From positions 1-60,321 of the forward strand of contig JBBSKW010000001.1 in the NCBI GenBank assembly GCA_038256005.1: a stretch of DNA of 60,321 bases, given 5' to 3'. This document shows positions 5,411-47,178 of the stretch, piece after piece; positions within the stretch are counted from its first letter, which is position 1; each line of letters begins with the position of its first letter. Under the pieces are notes generated by a model. That model searched no databases. It was not told where the DNA came from and worked only from the letters and a program-made list of their open reading frames with translations. The translations under genes were made by a program, and so were the position numbers. This stretch comes from Pyrinomonadales bacterium (GTDB lineage: Bacteria > Acidobacteriota > Blastocatellia > Pyrinomonadales > Pyrinomonadaceae).

Positions 5411-5977
5411 TTACGGCTGTTCCTGCGTTGCCTTTGCGGCTTTTCGCTGTTGGATCAGATCGCACGATTGATAAGCTCCCGAAGGATCGACCGCTGTGTT
5501 GCCTACCTCAACATGCTGCAGTTTTCCTTCCGTATCGACAACGAACGTTGCTCGGCGTCCGTATCCGGACTCTTCGTTGTAAAGCCCGAATGCTTTTGAG
5601 ACCTCTCGTTTCCAGTCGCTGAGCAGTGGAAACGTGACTCCAAGCTGCTTTGCGAACTCTTTGTTGGAAGCGAAGCTATCCATTGAAATTCCAATTACCT
5701 GTGTTTCTTTTGCGTCGAATTTTGCGATATCAGCCTGATACGCTTTTAGTTCGGCCGCTCAGCCACCGGTGAAGGCGAGCACATAGAAGGCAAGGACGAC
5801 GTTCTTCTTGCCGCGAAAATCACTGATTTTTACCTTATTTCCGGCAGTATCATTCAGCTCAAAATCCGGTGCGGCATCGCCTACTTTTAGGGCTGTGTAA
5901 GGCGCAGGCTTTGACTGGGCGATAACGCCTAATGAGCTCACGCAAACGAATAAAAAGGTTAATACGAGACGTTTCAA
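5411..5977 (-). CDS. Secreted AhpC/TSA (BCP-like) peroxiredoxin with an in-frame TGA at the peroxidatic Cys position. It is either a candidate selenocysteine protein or a pseudogene.
   Basis: Track ORFs 5759..5977 and 5411..5683 share one frame. They are joined by a single TGA (5759..5761) plus 25 sense codons (AAELKAYQADIAKFDAKETQVIGIS). The joined product has a signal peptide and then VVLAFYVLAFTGG-[TGA]-AAELKAY. This matches the FYPxxxTxxC-xxE active-site block of AhpC/TSA/BCP proteins, with the TGA exactly at the Cys position. Confidence 0.6.
5724..5743 (-). other. Candidate bacterial SECIS-like hairpin downstream of the in-frame UGA
   Basis: The mRNA reads UGA-GCGGCCGAACUAAAA-GCGUAUC-AGGCU-GAUA(U)CGC. 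The stem begins 15 nt after the UGA and has 7 bp with a bulged U. The apical loop contains GG about 22 nt from the UGA. This geometry resembles SelB-binding SECIS elements. Confidence 0.4.
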
Positions 5978-5989
5978 TTCAGTTGACCT

Positions 5990-6045
5990 CAGACAAGAAA
6001 AGTTCGTGATCTAAAGGCTAAGATAGCACAATCGATCACGAACTT
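5990..6045 (-). terminator. Hairpin terminator after the BI-1 family gene
   Basis: Perfect 12-bp inverted repeat AAGTTCGTGATC (6000..6011) / GATCACGAACTT (6034..6045). On the minus strand it is followed by TTCTTGTCT. Confidence 0.45.
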
Positions 6046-7246: not shown

Positions 7247-7648
7247 TTATCTACTTCCAGCAACCTGTATGCGAGCATTCGCATGTTCGATCCGTTCACG
7301 GATGGCTTCAGTATTCTCGCTTGGTTCGGTGGCGACCGAAGCAAGCTCTTTCTCAGCTTCTTCGCGGTCAATCTTGGCAGCATTCAGATCAACATCGTCG
7401 GCGTTCTCCGCAAAGTCCGTCATTACTGAAACGAGGTTATTGCTCACCTCAACAAACCCCGTCGAAACAGCCAACTTTTCAACGTTGCCCTTTTCCGAAT
7501 ACGTTAGAATCCCCGGCTTCAATGCCGAGATCAGCGGGGCGTGGGCGGACATTATTCCAGCCTCGCCGTTTGCAGTCGGAACGGTGACCGATTCGACCTC
7601 GGCTTCAACAACTTTTCGCTCGGGAGTTACTACTTCAAGTTTCAACAT
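7247..7648 (-). CDS. atpC: F0F1 ATP synthase epsilon subunit
   Basis: MLKLEVVTPERKVVEAEVESVTVPTANGEAGIMSAHAPLISALKPGIL. I prefer the ATG at 7648 over the TTG at 7660 used by the track. It lies directly downstream of atpD. Confidence 0.9.
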   Translation of the reverse strand: MLKLEVVTPERKVVEAEVESVTVPTANGEAGIMSAHAPLISALKPGILTYSEKGNVEKLAVSTGFVEVSNNLVSVMTDFAENADDVDLNAAKIDREEAEKELASVATEPSENTEAIRERIEHANARIQVAGSR

Positions 7649-7662
7649 AAATCTAAGCAATA

Positions 7663-7739: not shown

Positions 7740-9293
<1,554 letters not shown>

Positions 9294-9547
9294 TTACAAA
9301 GGAATAAGAATAGCATAGGAATCGAGGGAGCCGCAAAGGCATAGCGGGATTTCTATAACCCGCGGCGGGTGAATATCACCCCTCTAGTACGTGCGAAATA
9401 CGTACGCGGCCGGAGGAATCGAATAGTGCGTGCCGATTCGATGTTAAAGCAGTTTGGGATCGCAGTGGAGAAAACGGTGTAGTTTGAGACCGTGCGCGTT
9501 GAAAAGTTCGGCCAAGAACCGATGCTCGTGCTTGAGCTCGTCTCGCA

Positions 9548-9588
9548 GGAAAAGAAATGGCCGCCTCTAATTGAACATAAAGGCGACC
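9548..9588 (-). terminator. Possible terminator after the 92-aa membrane protein gene
   Basis: The minus strand reads GGTCGCCT-13 nt-AGGCGGCC (one mismatch) followed by ATTTCTTTT. Confidence 0.35.
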
Positions 9589-9603
9589 GTTCTTGTTATT
9601 GAT

Positions 9604-9882
9604 TTATTGATGAACCCGGTCCGAACCGGATATTTTTACAAGCTTGTTATAAACGCCGAGAAGAAGAAACGGTGAAACCCATTGGCCAATGAAGCGGCTT
9701 TTTTCAGAATTGCCTGTCATTTCAAAATAAGCAGAGACACCGATCGCGCCGATCGCTGCCCAAAGAAAAATGTCCGATGGCAACTTTGCCGTTTGTTCCT
9801 CGATCGTTCGTGCGACGATCCCTTCCGAGTGCTTCTCAGCCTCGGGCGTTGTAGTAGTCTGTTGTGTTGCTGTTCCGATCAT
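9604..9882 (-). CDS. Hypothetical small membrane protein
   Basis: 92 aa. A hydrophilic N-terminus is followed by two predicted TM segments (IFLWAAIGAIGVSAYF; WVSPFLLLGVY). Confidence 0.5.
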   Translation of the reverse strand: MIGTATQQTTTTPEAEKHSEGIVARTIEEQTAKLPSDIFLWAAIGAIGVSAYFEMTGNSEKSRFIGQWVSPFLLLGVYNKLVKISGSDRVHQ

Positions 9883-9956
9883 TTAATATACGTCCCCTTG
9901 TTCGAATTGTGTTGAGGCCATATCCCCAAATTCCTGGCGAACATCGCCTTATCAAC

Positions 9957-10130
9957 CTAAACTTTCTTCAAAACTATAGGCTTATGCGCCGCCCTAGCGC
10001 CGCCCTTTTCGCTCTCAACCAGGTACTTCGGGTCATCACTTGAAGCCTTAACCTCGTAAGTGTTTATCTTCGTCGGCGAGGTAAGTTTATTTGGACCGTT
10101 CCGGTCGTTTTTCTCTGCGAAGTTTCCCAT
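9957..10130 (-). CDS. Possible small hydrophilic protein of 57 aa, below the ORF-track length cutoff
   Basis: My own translation is MGNFAEKNDRNGPNKLTSPTKINTYEVKASSDDPKYLVESEKGGARAAHKPIVLKKV. It fills the gap in a run of small same-strand genes. Confidence 0.3.
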   Translation of the reverse strand: MGNFAEKNDRNGPNKLTSPTKINTYEVKASSDDPKYLVESEKGGARAAHKPIVLKKV

Positions 10131-10157
10131 TCGACCTTGTCGTCTTTTTTTAAGATC

Positions 10158-10361
10158 TTAGCCTTTAGCTTTCGCGGCTCCTTTGTGTCCCGAACCGCCT
10201 GGATTTTTGCCTCCGCCGTCTTGTTTATTCACGGTCGCCCAAGCACGGGCCTCGGCCTCATCTTTTGAAACCCCTTTTTCTTCATAGGCTTGGACGATGT
10301 GGCCGGCCTTTCGTTCCTGCTTCGCGGTGTACTTACTTGTTCCGTCTTTCTTGGTCGGCAT
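10158..10361 (-). CDS. Small conserved hydrophilic protein with a K/G-rich tail, function unknown
   Basis: 67 aa. The block SKYTAKQERKAGHIVQAYEEKGVSKDEAEARAWATVNKQDGGGK resembles a widespread small-protein family that is often annotated only as hypothetical or as a plasmid-stabilisation-like protein. Confidence 0.55.
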   Translation of the reverse strand: MPTKKDGTSKYTAKQERKAGHIVQAYEEKGVSKDEAEARAWATVNKQDGGGKNPGGSGHKGAAKAKG

Positions 10362-10370
10362 AGTTTCCTC

Positions 10371-10634
10371 TTAGAGAATTCCTAAAACGCCTTCGGCAGC
10401 CGGAACGCGAGTTCGTTCGCGGTTGATGAAGGTCTGTGCGATGACGAAAAGGTTCTCGGACTCGGACTCGATTTCATTACTTCGTATCTTTTGATGAGCA
10501 CGAAAGATCGATGCCGCAAATCGGTTGCGGTCCACACCGTCAGTTCCCTGCCGCTGCTTCTTTTTCACTGTGGTAGCTGGTCGAAATTGAAACATCGCTG
10601 TTACCCCATTTAAGTCTGAATTCTTTTCGTACAC
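10371..10634 (-). CDS. Hypothetical protein; the start is uncertain and may be the internal MFQFRP
   Basis: An 87-aa ORF with no recognisable motif. It is on the same strand as the neighbouring small genes and tightly spaced with them. Confidence 0.35.
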   Translation of the reverse strand: MYEKNSDLNGVTAMFQFRPATTVKKKQRQGTDGVDRNRFAASIFRAHQKIRSNEIESESENLFVIAQTFINRERTRVPAAEGVLGIL

Positions 10635-10783
10635 GTTGCCGCTTGTTAACGCCTTCGCGGCAAGACGCGTGCCATTCGGTTTGTTCGCAAATGTTACGCA
10701 CTCGGCGGAATTCCATTGACACCAAGCAGGCGTTCTTGTAGCCTCAAACCTGAATCAAAATCGCATTTGCCGGGACTATTTAA

Positions 10784-11752
10784 TTGAGCAATCTTCGAAA
10801 ACTCGAACTACCGCCACAGGGCCTGAACACGCTTTTCGGTGTACAGGATCAAAACATTAAGTATCTGGAAACGCTTCTCGACGTGAGCATCGGCGCTCGA
10901 GGCAACGAGCTGTTGATCGATGGCGATCCGGCCGATATCGATACGGTCGAAGAGATATTGCGCGATTTCGGCAAACTCTTTGCCGAAGGGCAAACGTTCA
11001 CCGATAACGAACTGAAAGACGCTTTCAAGCAGATCGCAGAAGATCGTGCATATAGTCTGATGGACCACTTCCAGCGAAATCGGTTCAATCCGTCCGGCAA
11101 GAAATCGATCGCGCCGAAAACGGCGAATCAGCGGAAGTATCTTGATGCGATCGCCTCAAACGATCTTGTGTTTGGGATCGGCGTTGCCGGAACAGGAAAG
11201 AGCTATCTGGCCGTTGCGATGGCGGTCGACGCATTATTGAAGAAACAAGTTTCGCGAATTATTTTGACGCGTCCTGCGGTCGAAGCGGGCGAACGGCTTG
11301 GGTTTTTGCCGGGCGATCTGCAGGAGAAAGTTGATCCGTATCTTCGACCGTTGTACGACGCCTTATTCGATCTGGTCGATGCGGAAAAGGTCACAAAAAT
11401 GCTCGAAAAACGCATTATCGAGATCGCTCCGCTTGCATTCATGCGCGGACGAACTCTTGCTGACGCATTCATCATTCTCGACGAAGCTCAGAACACCACC
11501 AGCGAACAAATGAAAATGTTCCTGACCCGCATCGGCTTCGGGTCCAAAGCCGTCGTCACCGGCGACCGCACTCAGATCGACCTGCCCCGCGGCCAAAAAA
11601 GCGGCATCAAGGAAGCCGAACTGGTTCTGAAAGATCTCGACGGCATCGAGTTTGTCTATTTCACCGATAAAGACGTCGTTCGACATAAATTGGTTCAGAT
11701 GATCGTCCGTGCGTATGAAGACTACGATACTGACGAGGACGGCGCCCAGTGA
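10784..11752 (+). CDS. ybeZ: PhoH-like ATPase (YbeZ)
   Basis: 322 aa with Walker [13 protein letters not shown] and IILDEAQN. It is followed by ybeY with a 4-nt overlap. Confidence 0.9.
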
Positions 11753-45882: not shown

Positions 45883-47178
45883 TTATTTAGCCTTAACGAT
45901 GAATATTGTCCCATCGTCGTCGAGATATTTATTTTCGGTAAATTCGGAAACGTCCTTTCTGACGTAGTCGATCATTTCTTTTGCCGTAAGATTCTTACAC
46001 TCGAGAATACAAGCGGCAAATCTTTCTTTTCCATATTCTTCGCCTGTTTCGTTGGTAGCTTCGGTGATCCCGTCCGTGTAGATGACCAAAATCTCACCCG
46101 GCTTTCTAAAACGTGCGAAATGCTGGTGGTATCGGGCATCGCGAAACATTCCAAGCGGAAGATCGCCAAATTCAACAAATTCGATCGCATCGTCAGCTCG
46201 AATTATCATCAGCGGATTGTGACCTGCGTTCGAGAAAACGAATGTCCGGTTTGTGCAATCCAGAATGCCATAAACCGCCGTAATGAATTGATGATCTTCC
46301 ACTGAATCCCAAAGCAGATTATTGACCTTTGACATCGCGATGTGCGGCGCATAGCCTTCCTGAACGCCGGCTCGTAATGACGCACGAAGAAACGACATCA
46401 GTAGTGCCGCAGGAATTCCCTTTCCAACCGCGTCAGCCACTACGATCCCAAGCTGGTCATCAAAGATCTTTACCCAATCGTAATAATCGCCTGAAACTTC
46501 TTCGGTCGGGAAAATATAGGCACTGATGTCAAAGTTTTCAACTTCAGGGTCTTCGTCGGGCAAAAGCTCTAATTGAACCTGCCGAGCTATCTCTAGCTGA
46601 GCTTCAATCCGCTTCTTCTCGACGGCCTGTTCGTGGAGGTTGACCTTTTCAATGATGATCGCGACCTGCGAGGTCAATAGCTGCAGGACCGCAAGATCGT
46701 CCTCCGAGTAGGCGTTAAGTGCGTCACTTTCAAGGTCAAACGCACCGATAACTTTATCGTTCGAAATGATCGGCGCTACCATCTCAGACTTCGTACGGAT
46801 TCGCGCTTTGAAATATCTTTCGTCCTGCTCAACGTCCGGCGAAATGATCGCCTGGCCGGTCTGAGCGACCCGGCCGAGAAAGCCCTCGCCGAGTTTCAAA
46901 CGCGGTTCGATCAGCTCAAAACTAATTTCATAACCGCGGATGACGCGAGATTTGAAAATGTACTGATCACCGTCGTCTTCGTTGGTTTCGATCAGGTAAA
47001 TTCCGGCGGCATCATATGGCAAAAGCGTGCCGAGTGTGTCCATTACCAGATTTAACACTTCATCGAGATTCAACGAACGACTGATCTTCTTAGTGATATC
47101 GAGCAGCATTCGCAACTTATCCACGGTAGCAAGCTCTGGCCGATGTACTGAAGTATTGGGTTGGACTATGTCGTTCAT
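45883..47178 (-). CDS. GAF-domain PP2C-type (SpoIIE/RsbU-like) serine phosphatase
   Basis: 431 aa. An N-terminal GAF domain is followed by a PP2C/SpoIIE domain (EEVSGDYYDW, VADAVGKGIPAALLM, YTDGITEA). Confidence 0.85.
   Translation of the reverse strand: MNDIVQPNTSVHRPELATVDKLRMLLDITKKISRSLNLDEVLNLVMDTLGTLLPYDAAGIYLIETNEDDGDQYIFKSRVIRGYEISFELIEPRLKLGEGFLGRVAQTGQAIISPDVEQDERYFKARIRTKSEMVAPIISNDKVIGAFDLESDALNAYSEDDLAVLQLLTSQVAIIIEKVNLHEQAVEKKRIEAQLEIARQVQLELLPDEDPEVENFDISAYIFPTEEVSGDYYDWVKIFDDQLGIVVADAVGKGIPAALLMSFLRASLRAGVQEGYAPHIAMSKVNNLLWDSVEDHQFITAVYGILDCTNRTFVFSNAGHNPLMIIRADDAIEFVEFGDLPLGMFRDARYHQHFARFRKPGEILVIYTDGITEATNETGEEYGKERFAACILECKNLTAKEMIDYVRKDVSEFTENKYLDDDGTIFIVKAK

Follow-up and report, generated by a model that had tools for sequence, protein, structure and literature searches.

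The stretch of DNA analysed in this study (60,321 nt; positions 1 to 60,321 of contig JBBSKW010000001.1 of a Pyrinomonadales bacterium, hereafter called the window) carries on its minus strand a peroxiredoxin gene whose reading frame is interrupted by a single TGA triplet and continues through a short hairpin. In an initial annotation this gene was presented as a candidate selenoprotein, i.e. an exported peroxiredoxin with selenocysteine (Sec) in place of its catalytic Cys. Direct translation of positions 5977 to 5411 revealed a single frame of 188 codons with one internal stop (5759..5761), as had been proposed, and both of the open reading frames (ORFs) on the program-made list (5759..5977 and 5411..5683, minus strand) belong to this frame. 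All of the elements described in the annotation were found where it had placed them: a signal peptide, the TGA at the codon of the peroxidatic Cys, a candidate resolving Cys in the motif AYQSCDL and a hairpin located exactly 15 nt after the UGA (Table 1). The frame starts with TTG, at a position where its relatives have the ATG start of an MK(K/R) N-terminus, and it is preceded by the motif GAGGU, which, to judge from the sequence, is likely the ribosome-binding site of the gene.

Table 1. Positions of the features of the TGA-interrupted peroxiredoxin gene in the window
Feature	Position	Strand	Remarks
Complete coding sequence of the highly probable selenoprotein	5411..5977	minus	TTG start 5977..5975, UGA codon 73, TAA 5413..5411
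GAGGU, likely ribosome-binding site	5986..5990	minus	8 nt 5' of the TTG start; read from the sequence
Predicted signal peptide, residues 1-20, (M)KRLVLTFLFVCVSSLGVIA, predicted cleavage before Q21	5918..5977	minus	Charged n-region, hydrophobic core, V-I-A/Q motif
Active-site block F64-Y-V-L-A-F-T70-G-G-U73	5759..5788	minus	Aligned to FFPLAFTGIC of AhpE; Thr70 = 5770..5768
UGA codon 73, peroxidatic position, probably read as Sec	5759..5761	minus	TGA in 82/82 sequences; Cys codon in distant homologues
SECIS-type hairpin GCGUAUC-AGGCU-GAUA(U)CGC	5724..5743	minus	7 bp, 3' bulged U, 5-nt AGKCU loop, 15 nt past the UGA
Arg142 codon, conserved catalytic arginine of peroxiredoxins	5552..5554	minus	Aligns with the Arg of ANRGTFVVD in AhpE
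Cys172 codon (AYQSCDL), candidate resolving cysteine	5462..5464	minus	On the C-terminal helix

The read-through protein, with Cys substituted for the stop, was compared with hidden Markov models (HMMs) of protein families. It matched the Pfam model AhpC-TSA (PF00578) over residues 32–155 with 131.1 bits (gathering score 26; E = 2.8e-38), and the Redoxin model was also matched. The top PDB match by sequence was AhpE of Mycobacterium tuberculosis (E = 4.8e-26), with LAFTGG[U]AAEL aligned to LAFTGICQGEL, and GRRATFVVD to ANRGTFVVD. For the comparison of structures we used an AlphaFold2 model (pLDDT 86.9) of P0017, a natural Cys homologue that is 57% identical to the window protein. This model superimposed on AhpE with a template modelling (TM) score of 0.87–0.90 and a root-mean-square deviation of 1.5–2.0 Å, at approximately 40% identity. 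Its fold matched AhpE, Bcp4 and Bcp1 with a probability of 1.00 and TM scores of up to 0.90, the archaeal Bcp4 and Bcp1 scoring nearly as high as AhpE. By its closest relationships in sequence and in modelled structure the peroxiredoxin is thus AhpE-like. The assignment to the AhpC/TSA fold in the initial annotation therefore holds, while its qualification as "BCP-like" is replaced by "AhpE-like", since AhpE ranks first by sequence and reaches a TM score of 0.87–0.90 by fold. None of the NCBIfam models reached its cut-off, the best being that for BCP (NF006960; 83.9 bits, cut-off 140). The usual description of AhpE as a 1-Cys, cytoplasmic enzyme does not extend to the homologues examined here, which have an invariant C-terminal Cys172 and a signal peptide.

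The N-terminus, (M)KRLVLTFLFVCVSSLGVIA followed by QS, shows the succession of charged, hydrophobic and small residues typical of type I signal peptides. This architecture was also observed in both the Sec-type and the Cys-type database homologues examined, and residues 3–20 of the P0017 model form a separate N-terminal helix. These features point to export of the peroxiredoxin to the periplasm. Within the active-site block, the alignment of T-G-G-U with the T-G-I-C of AhpE places the stop exactly at the peroxidatic Cys, three residues past Thr70. The catalytic residues are encoded on both sides of the UGA, Thr70 on its 5' side and Arg142 on its 3' side; the latter was invariant in alignments A1 and A3. 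Cys172, which falls within the C-terminal helix (residues 167–183) of the P0017 model, was invariant in 23 Sec-type sequences as well as in 33 mixed Sec- and Cys-type sequences, and is a candidate for resolving oxidised U73.

The conservation of the UGA was analysed in a set of 82 sequences, i.e. the window gene and 81 loci, 80 of which were obtained by a profile scan of contigs representing one genome per species (the best 80 of 541 confirmed related stretches) and one from the 3.37-Mb contig ERZ25039524:contig_349. Complete Pyrinomonadaceae chromosomes, among them OZ244585.1 and OZ252034.1, carry the gene as well. Nearly all of the 81 loci, which stem from metagenome-assembled genomes, are labelled as Pyrinomonadaceae, Blastocatellia, Chloracidobacterium or Acidobacteriota, and their products are 57–92% identical to the window protein at the amino acid level. 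TGA was present at codon 73 in each of the 82 sequences. The identical triplet was also found in two independent assemblies of Sequence Read Archive data that represent essentially the same strain (0 and 1 mismatch over 567 nt). None of the 82 sequences contains an additional stop or a frameshift. The share of differences that falls on third codon positions is 70% 5' of the TGA and 62% 3' of it, and the mean pairwise amino acid identities of these two parts are 82% and 74%, respectively. In 57 sequences there is no ATG, GTG or TTG within the 12 codons following the TGA, which argues against the downstream part being a separately initiated protein. Moreover, TGA is the terminator of 6 of the 27 solid genes of the window (including phoH, pyrG and corC), and the genetic code is therefore standard. 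Two of the loci carry taxonomic labels that differ from those of the others, namely L027 (JBDTZT010000298.1, "Actinomycetota bacterium") and L018 (JAQSDP010000202.1, "bacterium"). In both, the gene is of the usual Pyrinomonadaceae type (70% identity, TGA and hairpin present), which suggests that these contigs have been mis-binned or mis-labelled.

The hairpin resembles a bacterial selenocysteine insertion sequence (SECIS) and is strongly conserved. Across the set it follows the consensus GCNUAUC-AGKCU-GAUA(U)NGC, and RNAalifold independently predicted the same structure from the 82 sequences. In these, 99.1% of the stem cells were paired, compared with 10–66% when the 3' partners were shifted by 1–3 columns. 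Six of the stem pairs are invariant or nearly so. The third one, formed by the wobble position of an Ala codon and that of an Ile/Met codon, is variable and was found paired in 79 of the 82 sequences (GC 51, AU 18, CG 7, GU 2, UA 1, unpaired 3). When its 5' base is C, the codon contributing the 3' base is ATG; the replacement of Ile by Met (ATC to ATG) occurs exactly where the partner codon is GCC, and this change in the protein thus reflects the maintenance of the stem pair. On a neighbour-joining gene tree built without the hairpin codons the variable pair underwent at least 16 changes of state (minimum 24 and mean 29 for shuffled tips), which indicates many independent, yet phylogenetically coherent, switches.

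A second line of evidence came from synonymous sites. Codons +7 to +10 (TAT CAG GCT/TCT GAT) showed zero synonymous variation in all 82 sequences, and this lack of synonymous entropy is unique among the 94 degenerate conserved codons. The other conserved degenerate codons average 1.36 bits, the next lowest value being that of Lys +13, located directly after the stem. The bacterial SECIS consensus of Zhang and Gladyshev (2005) reportedly requires a UGA-to-loop distance of 16–37 nt and a G at one of the two leading loop positions; both the spacing and the loop G of the hairpin fit this description. A scan of the window and the loci for other TGA-preceded hairpins with an AGKCU loop yielded only scattered and presumably chance matches. 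In the minimum-energy fold of the window sequence alone, the hairpin is surrounded by an additional lower stem (GCG..CCGA / UCGG.CGC) beginning immediately 3' of the UGA (5699..5761, minus strand). This extension is absent from the consensus fold of the 82 sequences and was not included in the SECIS element.

Homologues with Cys at the position of the UGA were also identified. They account for 25 of the best 120 database matches; most of them contain the block FYPAAFTGGC and are approximately 47–54% identical to the query. The codons TGC or TGT were confirmed in the DNA of six Cys-type homologues. Both Sec-type and Cys-type forms have the signal peptide, the catalytic Arg and the invariant Cys near the C-terminus. 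Pairing of Sec with Cys, as seen in these alignments, is a standard signature of a selenoprotein family. A closer clade, represented by three sequences with the block FYVMAFGPNC (L090:102-662, L091:354-908 and L092:57-959), carries TGC at the catalytic codon and has nevertheless preserved the hairpin 15 nt downstream. It is intact in L090, contains an uncompensated A.C mismatch in L091, and in L092 has a U-to-C change in the loop that is absent from all 82 Sec forms. In these three sequences the hairpin looks like a fossil SECIS remaining after a Sec-to-Cys conversion. In three distant homologues with TGC or TGT there is no equivalent hairpin, and the amino acids encoded across that stretch are variable. 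As far as these sequences indicate, the constraint on the hairpin tracks the UGA: the structure is kept in the Sec forms and is decaying or absent in the Cys forms. The Cys-type homologue P0114 (300 amino acids, encoded by L092:57-959) is fused to a C-terminal cupin domain; downstream of its gene, the same short contig carries a VTT-domain gene and, further on, a pair of TatA/B/E genes.

The retention of the UGA in 82 of 82 sequences, together with the conserved hairpin, strongly suggests that this triplet almost certainly encodes selenocysteine. Considering the whole of the comparative sequence evidence, we regard it as highly probable that positions 5977..5411 constitute an intact gene of an exported AhpE-like peroxiredoxin with a peroxidatic Sec encoded by the UGA. 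The proposal of a candidate selenoprotein in the initial annotation was thus strengthened by the invariable TGA, the coding constraint on both sides of it, the existence of Sec/Cys pairs and the covarying hairpin. The alignment of orthologues that the annotation had suggested revealed TGA throughout the set and covariation at the one variable pair of the hairpin. The opposite picture which it had envisaged, i.e. an intact Cys codon in close relatives and decay of this allele, was not observed: all 81 loci have TGA, and the downstream half of the gene is under coding constraint.

According to the mechanism which we propose, the hairpin would act as a bacterial SECIS during translation. Its apical loop (AGKCU) and bulged U would be the binding site of SelB loaded with Sec-tRNA(Sec), and SelB, competing with RF2, would supply Sec at the UGA in the A site of the ribosome; both the identity of the inserted residue as Sec and the binding of the hairpin by SelB are inferred. 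The full-length pre-protein would then be exported to the periplasm of the diderm Acidobacteriota host and cleaved after Ala20. In the mature enzyme the U73 selenolate, activated by Thr70 and Arg142, would attack the hydroperoxide with formation of a selenenic acid, and the latter would react with Cys172 of the same or the partner subunit to give a selenenylsulfide. By analogy with the envelope peroxiredoxin PprX of Caulobacter, the selenenylsulfide may be reduced by an envelope thiol-disulfide relay of the DsbD/ScsB-TlpA type. No ScsB, DsbD or TlpA gene adjoins the peroxiredoxin gene.

Several observations weigh against the assignment of the gene to the selenoproteins. Using tblastn with the Escherichia coli proteins (NC_000913.3), no homologue of SelA, SelB or SelD was detected in either the 60-kb window or the 81 loci, nor did ARAGORN and Rfam reveal a tRNA-Sec in the window or the 81 short loci. 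Among the NCBIfam models, no selenoprotein model reached its cut-off; PrxU (NF040737) scored 79.3 bits, with a cut-off of 270, which sets the window protein apart from the PrxU equivalogs. Val66 (5780..5782) stands in place of the canonical Pro in the PxxxTxxC/U motif. The hairpin is short, and its fold is not significant in the single sequence (z = -1.55 for a 63-nt stretch). As only one of its seven pairs varies, the covariation rests on this pair and on the invariance of synonymous sites. Rfam contains no matching model (whole window, gathering thresholds). Finally, the hairpin differs from the SECIS of E. coli fdhF (NC_000913.3; UGA + 11 nt + GGUUGC-AGGUCU-GCACC), where the bulged U is located in the 5' arm, the loop comprises 6 nt and the spacing 11 nt; here the corresponding features are the 3' arm, 5 nt and 15 nt.

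Some of these points can be put into perspective. The significance of the hairpin derives from the comparative data, i.e. the TGA in 82/82 sequences, the synonymous invariance and the covarying pair, and not from the fold of a single sequence. The fdhF element is itself an intragenic hairpin shortly past the UGA, with a bulged U and a loop (AGGUCU) that resembles the AGGCU or AGUCU found here. A permissive Rfam search of positions 5650–5800 produced matches to MIR164 and sR7 alone, both attributable to chance, and Rfam neither supports nor contradicts the SECIS. Val occupies the position of the Pro in 79 of the 82 Sec-type sequences (FYVLAFTGGU), whereas the distant Cys-type homologues and AhpE keep Pro (FYPAAFTGGC in the former). 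Given the HMM and fold matches, Val66 is a deviation inside the peroxiredoxin family and no ground for exclusion from it; the change from Pro to Val may be connected with Sec use. As for the Sec machinery, SelD, SelA, SelB and one known selenoprotein have been recorded for Candidatus Chloracidobacterium thermophilum B, and several other Acidobacteria are listed alongside it (Peng et al. 2016, PMC5029168, Tables S1 and S2). Chloracidobacterium thermophilum and the Pyrinomonadaceae both belong to the class Blastocatellia.

The search for other signs of Sec use in the window gave little. The sole ARAGORN match was a 92-nt "tRNA-Ser(ACT)" (46344..46435, minus strand) located inside an ORF of 431 amino acids (45883..47178) that is SpoIIE/PP2C-like. 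This match is almost certainly a false positive rather than a tRNA-Sec, since it lies within a coding region and Rfam detects no tRNA there. Of 53 candidate TGA-interrupted frames of the window, those examined by hand were shadow frames of real genes or short intergenic ORFs, none of them convincing.

The alternative reading offered in the initial annotation was that of a pseudogene, i.e. a Cys-peroxiredoxin gene in which TGC has mutated to the nonsense codon TGA and whose downstream part is untranslated and decaying. A frame divided by one internal stop, public annotation consisting of fragments and the absence of visible Sec machinery from the window would all agree with this. However, all 82 sequences, which come from genomes that differ at the species level, have the same TGA, and the 95 codons downstream of it have a coding pattern of substitutions (74% mean amino acid identity), specify the invariant Arg142 and Cys172 and are free of further stops and frameshifts throughout the set. 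These data contradict the pseudogene explanation, which we consider very unlikely. An even smaller probability is assigned to a one-base sequencing or assembly error, for which only the general possibility speaks, as the TGA recurs in two assemblies from different runs and in 81 other genomes. It is also hardly credible that two polypeptides are produced, a secreted N-terminal fragment of 72 residues and an independently initiated C-terminal one, with the hairpin serving an unrelated purpose, e.g. as a regulator of re-initiation. Gene callers do place an ORF start at an M or L soon after the TGA in some relatives, but this position is not conserved among them, and the 57 sequences mentioned above offer no ATG, GTG or TTG in the next 12 codons. 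In addition, both the thioredoxin fold and the active site would be incomplete in either fragment, with the stop separating Thr70 (upstream) from Arg142 (downstream), and the C-terminal one would lack a signal peptide. A reassigned code, with TGA meaning Trp or Gly in this lineage (tables 4 or 25), might be suspected from the fact that 55 of the best 120 database homologues are full-length proteins with W at this position. These W proteins come from short contigs with TGA in their DNA, and table 11 does not yield the query; as TGA also ends 6 of 27 well-defined genes of the window, reassignment is most improbable.

More attention is due to the possibility that the UGA is read through as a residue other than Sec, for example Trp (by near-cognate or suppressor decoding) or Cys (by a tRNA-Sec-like tRNA(Cys) or an allo-tRNA), the hairpin acting as a stimulator or a SelB site. 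Trp at the peroxidatic position would result in a dead enzyme, yet Thr, Arg and the fold are strictly conserved. With regard to Cys, the close Cys-encoding clade shows that this residue is functionally acceptable at the site, and the absence of SelA, SelB and SelD matches from the window and the 81 loci accords with a route independent of Sec. Mukai et al. (PMC5389517) described tRNA-Sec-like selC* tRNA(Cys) and, in Acidobacteria, allo-tRNAs; such molecules may act as nonsense suppressors. Nevertheless, the selC* genes were described in anaerobic Firmicutes, Thermodesulfobacteria, Nitrospirae and Proteobacteria, and not in Acidobacteria (PMC5389517), whereas the Sec trait has been reported for the same class as our host (PMC5029168). 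For a Cys product TGC would be the simpler codon, and UGA would not be expected to persist in 82 of 82 lineages; the geometry of the hairpin and its AGKCU loop, moreover, match SECIS elements of the SelB type. Read-through as a non-Sec residue therefore appears unlikely. We also see a slight chance of a selenium-flexible recoding, in which the UGA would receive, from SelB or a related factor, Sec-tRNA(Sec) or else a tRNA-Sec-like molecule or allo-tRNA charged with Cys, so that these aerobic soil Acidobacteriota would insert Sec or Cys into the exported peroxidase according to the selenium supply. The Cys clade with its decaying hairpin shows that the site moves easily between Sec and Cys.

If the UGA is decoded as Sec, as we believe, the protein joins a group that is well known. 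The family Prx (TxxU) is an experimentally verified family of bacterial selenoproteins (PMC13188914, PMC9312934, PMC1794560), whose prototype is PrxU of Eubacterium acidaminophilum (Sohling et al. 2001, as listed in PMC13188914, PMC9312934, PMC1794560 and PMC5029168). Every survey includes it: in 2006 it comprised 12 proteins resulting from 5 independent Cys-to-Sec events (PMC1794560), and in 2016, 91 proteins from 78 organisms (PMC5029168). The window protein shares with this family (i) the AhpC/TSA domain, (ii) a probable Sec in place of the peroxidatic Cys in T-x-x-U, (iii) the existence of Cys homologues and (iv) an intragenic SECIS just past the UGA. It differs in belonging to an AhpE-like branch, in its signal peptide and invariant C-terminal Cys, and in having Val for the Pro of the PxxxTxxU motif (PMC13188914). 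M. tuberculosis AhpE (Rv2238c), a 1-Cys and mycoredoxin-dependent enzyme, has the motifs LAFTG-x-C/U, LLSD-W and NRGTFVVD in common with it. AhpE differs as a cytoplasmic enzyme with a catalytic Cys, a retained Pro (FFPLAFTGIC) and no resolving Cys; the window protein has a predicted signal peptide, a probable Sec, Val instead of Pro and an extra C-terminal helix with Cys172.

A precedent for the recycling of an exported peroxiredoxin is provided by PprX of Caulobacter crescentus, a cell-envelope peroxiredoxin whose reduction proceeds through ScsB-TlpA (Cho et al. 2012, PMC3322552). PprX is likewise a thiol-dependent envelope enzyme with a signal peptide and a non-canonical position of the resolving Cys, but it belongs to the BCP/PrxQ subfamily, uses Cys and has retained PXXXTXXC. 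With the Prx (TxxU) family long established and an exported peroxiredoxin known in PprX, the remark in the initial annotation that a Sec-peroxiredoxin bearing a signal peptide would be notable was overstated. Judged by titles and abstracts, no paper on an AhpE-type selenoprotein was identified in the literature, and no paper linking Blastocatellia or Pyrinomonadaceae to selenocysteine was found there.

The treatment of the gene in public databases reflects its internal TGA. The close database matches are either fragments of approximately 103–117 amino acids that start just after the stop, or full-length proteins with W at its position. For two W proteins, a JGI and an NCBI entry (L093:316-876 and L094:257-814), the underlying DNA contains TGA, so that the W is artefactual and stems from gene calling on short contigs with a table that reads TGA as Trp. 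W at the Sec position occurs in many predictions (P0001–P0016 and others) from short contigs in JGI, NCBI and ENA. On long contigs the gene has been called as two ORFs, of 60–73 and approximately 90–113 amino acids, the latter as a "redoxin domain-containing protein". NCBI nr holds only C-terminal fragments (e.g. MBX3268567.1, MBK9165177.1 and HCA57423.1), under the names "redoxin domain-containing protein", "peroxiredoxin family protein" or "hypothetical protein". As a consequence of such splitting or translation as Trp, the annotation of this lineage lacks an antioxidant enzyme that is catalytically complete.

This is a real gene of an already familiar kind which public annotation has divided into two fragments. 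It works like the known Sec-peroxiredoxins and opens no new category of biology; its usefulness lies in annotation and in the study of SECIS evolution, for which it offers a series covering gain, maintenance and loss (82 Sec forms with a rigidly kept hairpin, a sister Cys clade with a decaying hairpin and distant Cys forms with none). If the product contains Sec, these bacteria need selenium for peroxide defence of the envelope, and an exported AhpE-type branch is added to the known Sec-peroxiredoxins.

The neighbourhood of the gene is partly shared among the loci: 55 of the 81 have a Bax1-I gene upstream, and 44 have a convergent xseB. Further along the window, a 1.5-kb stretch (9252..10783) without any ORF longer than 92 amino acids separates atpD (7740..9251, minus strand) from phoH (10784..11752, plus strand). 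The atpD gene is followed by atpC (approximately 7247..7660, minus strand); as there is no atpG-sized ORF upstream of atpD, the ATP synthase genes appear to be split in this genome region.

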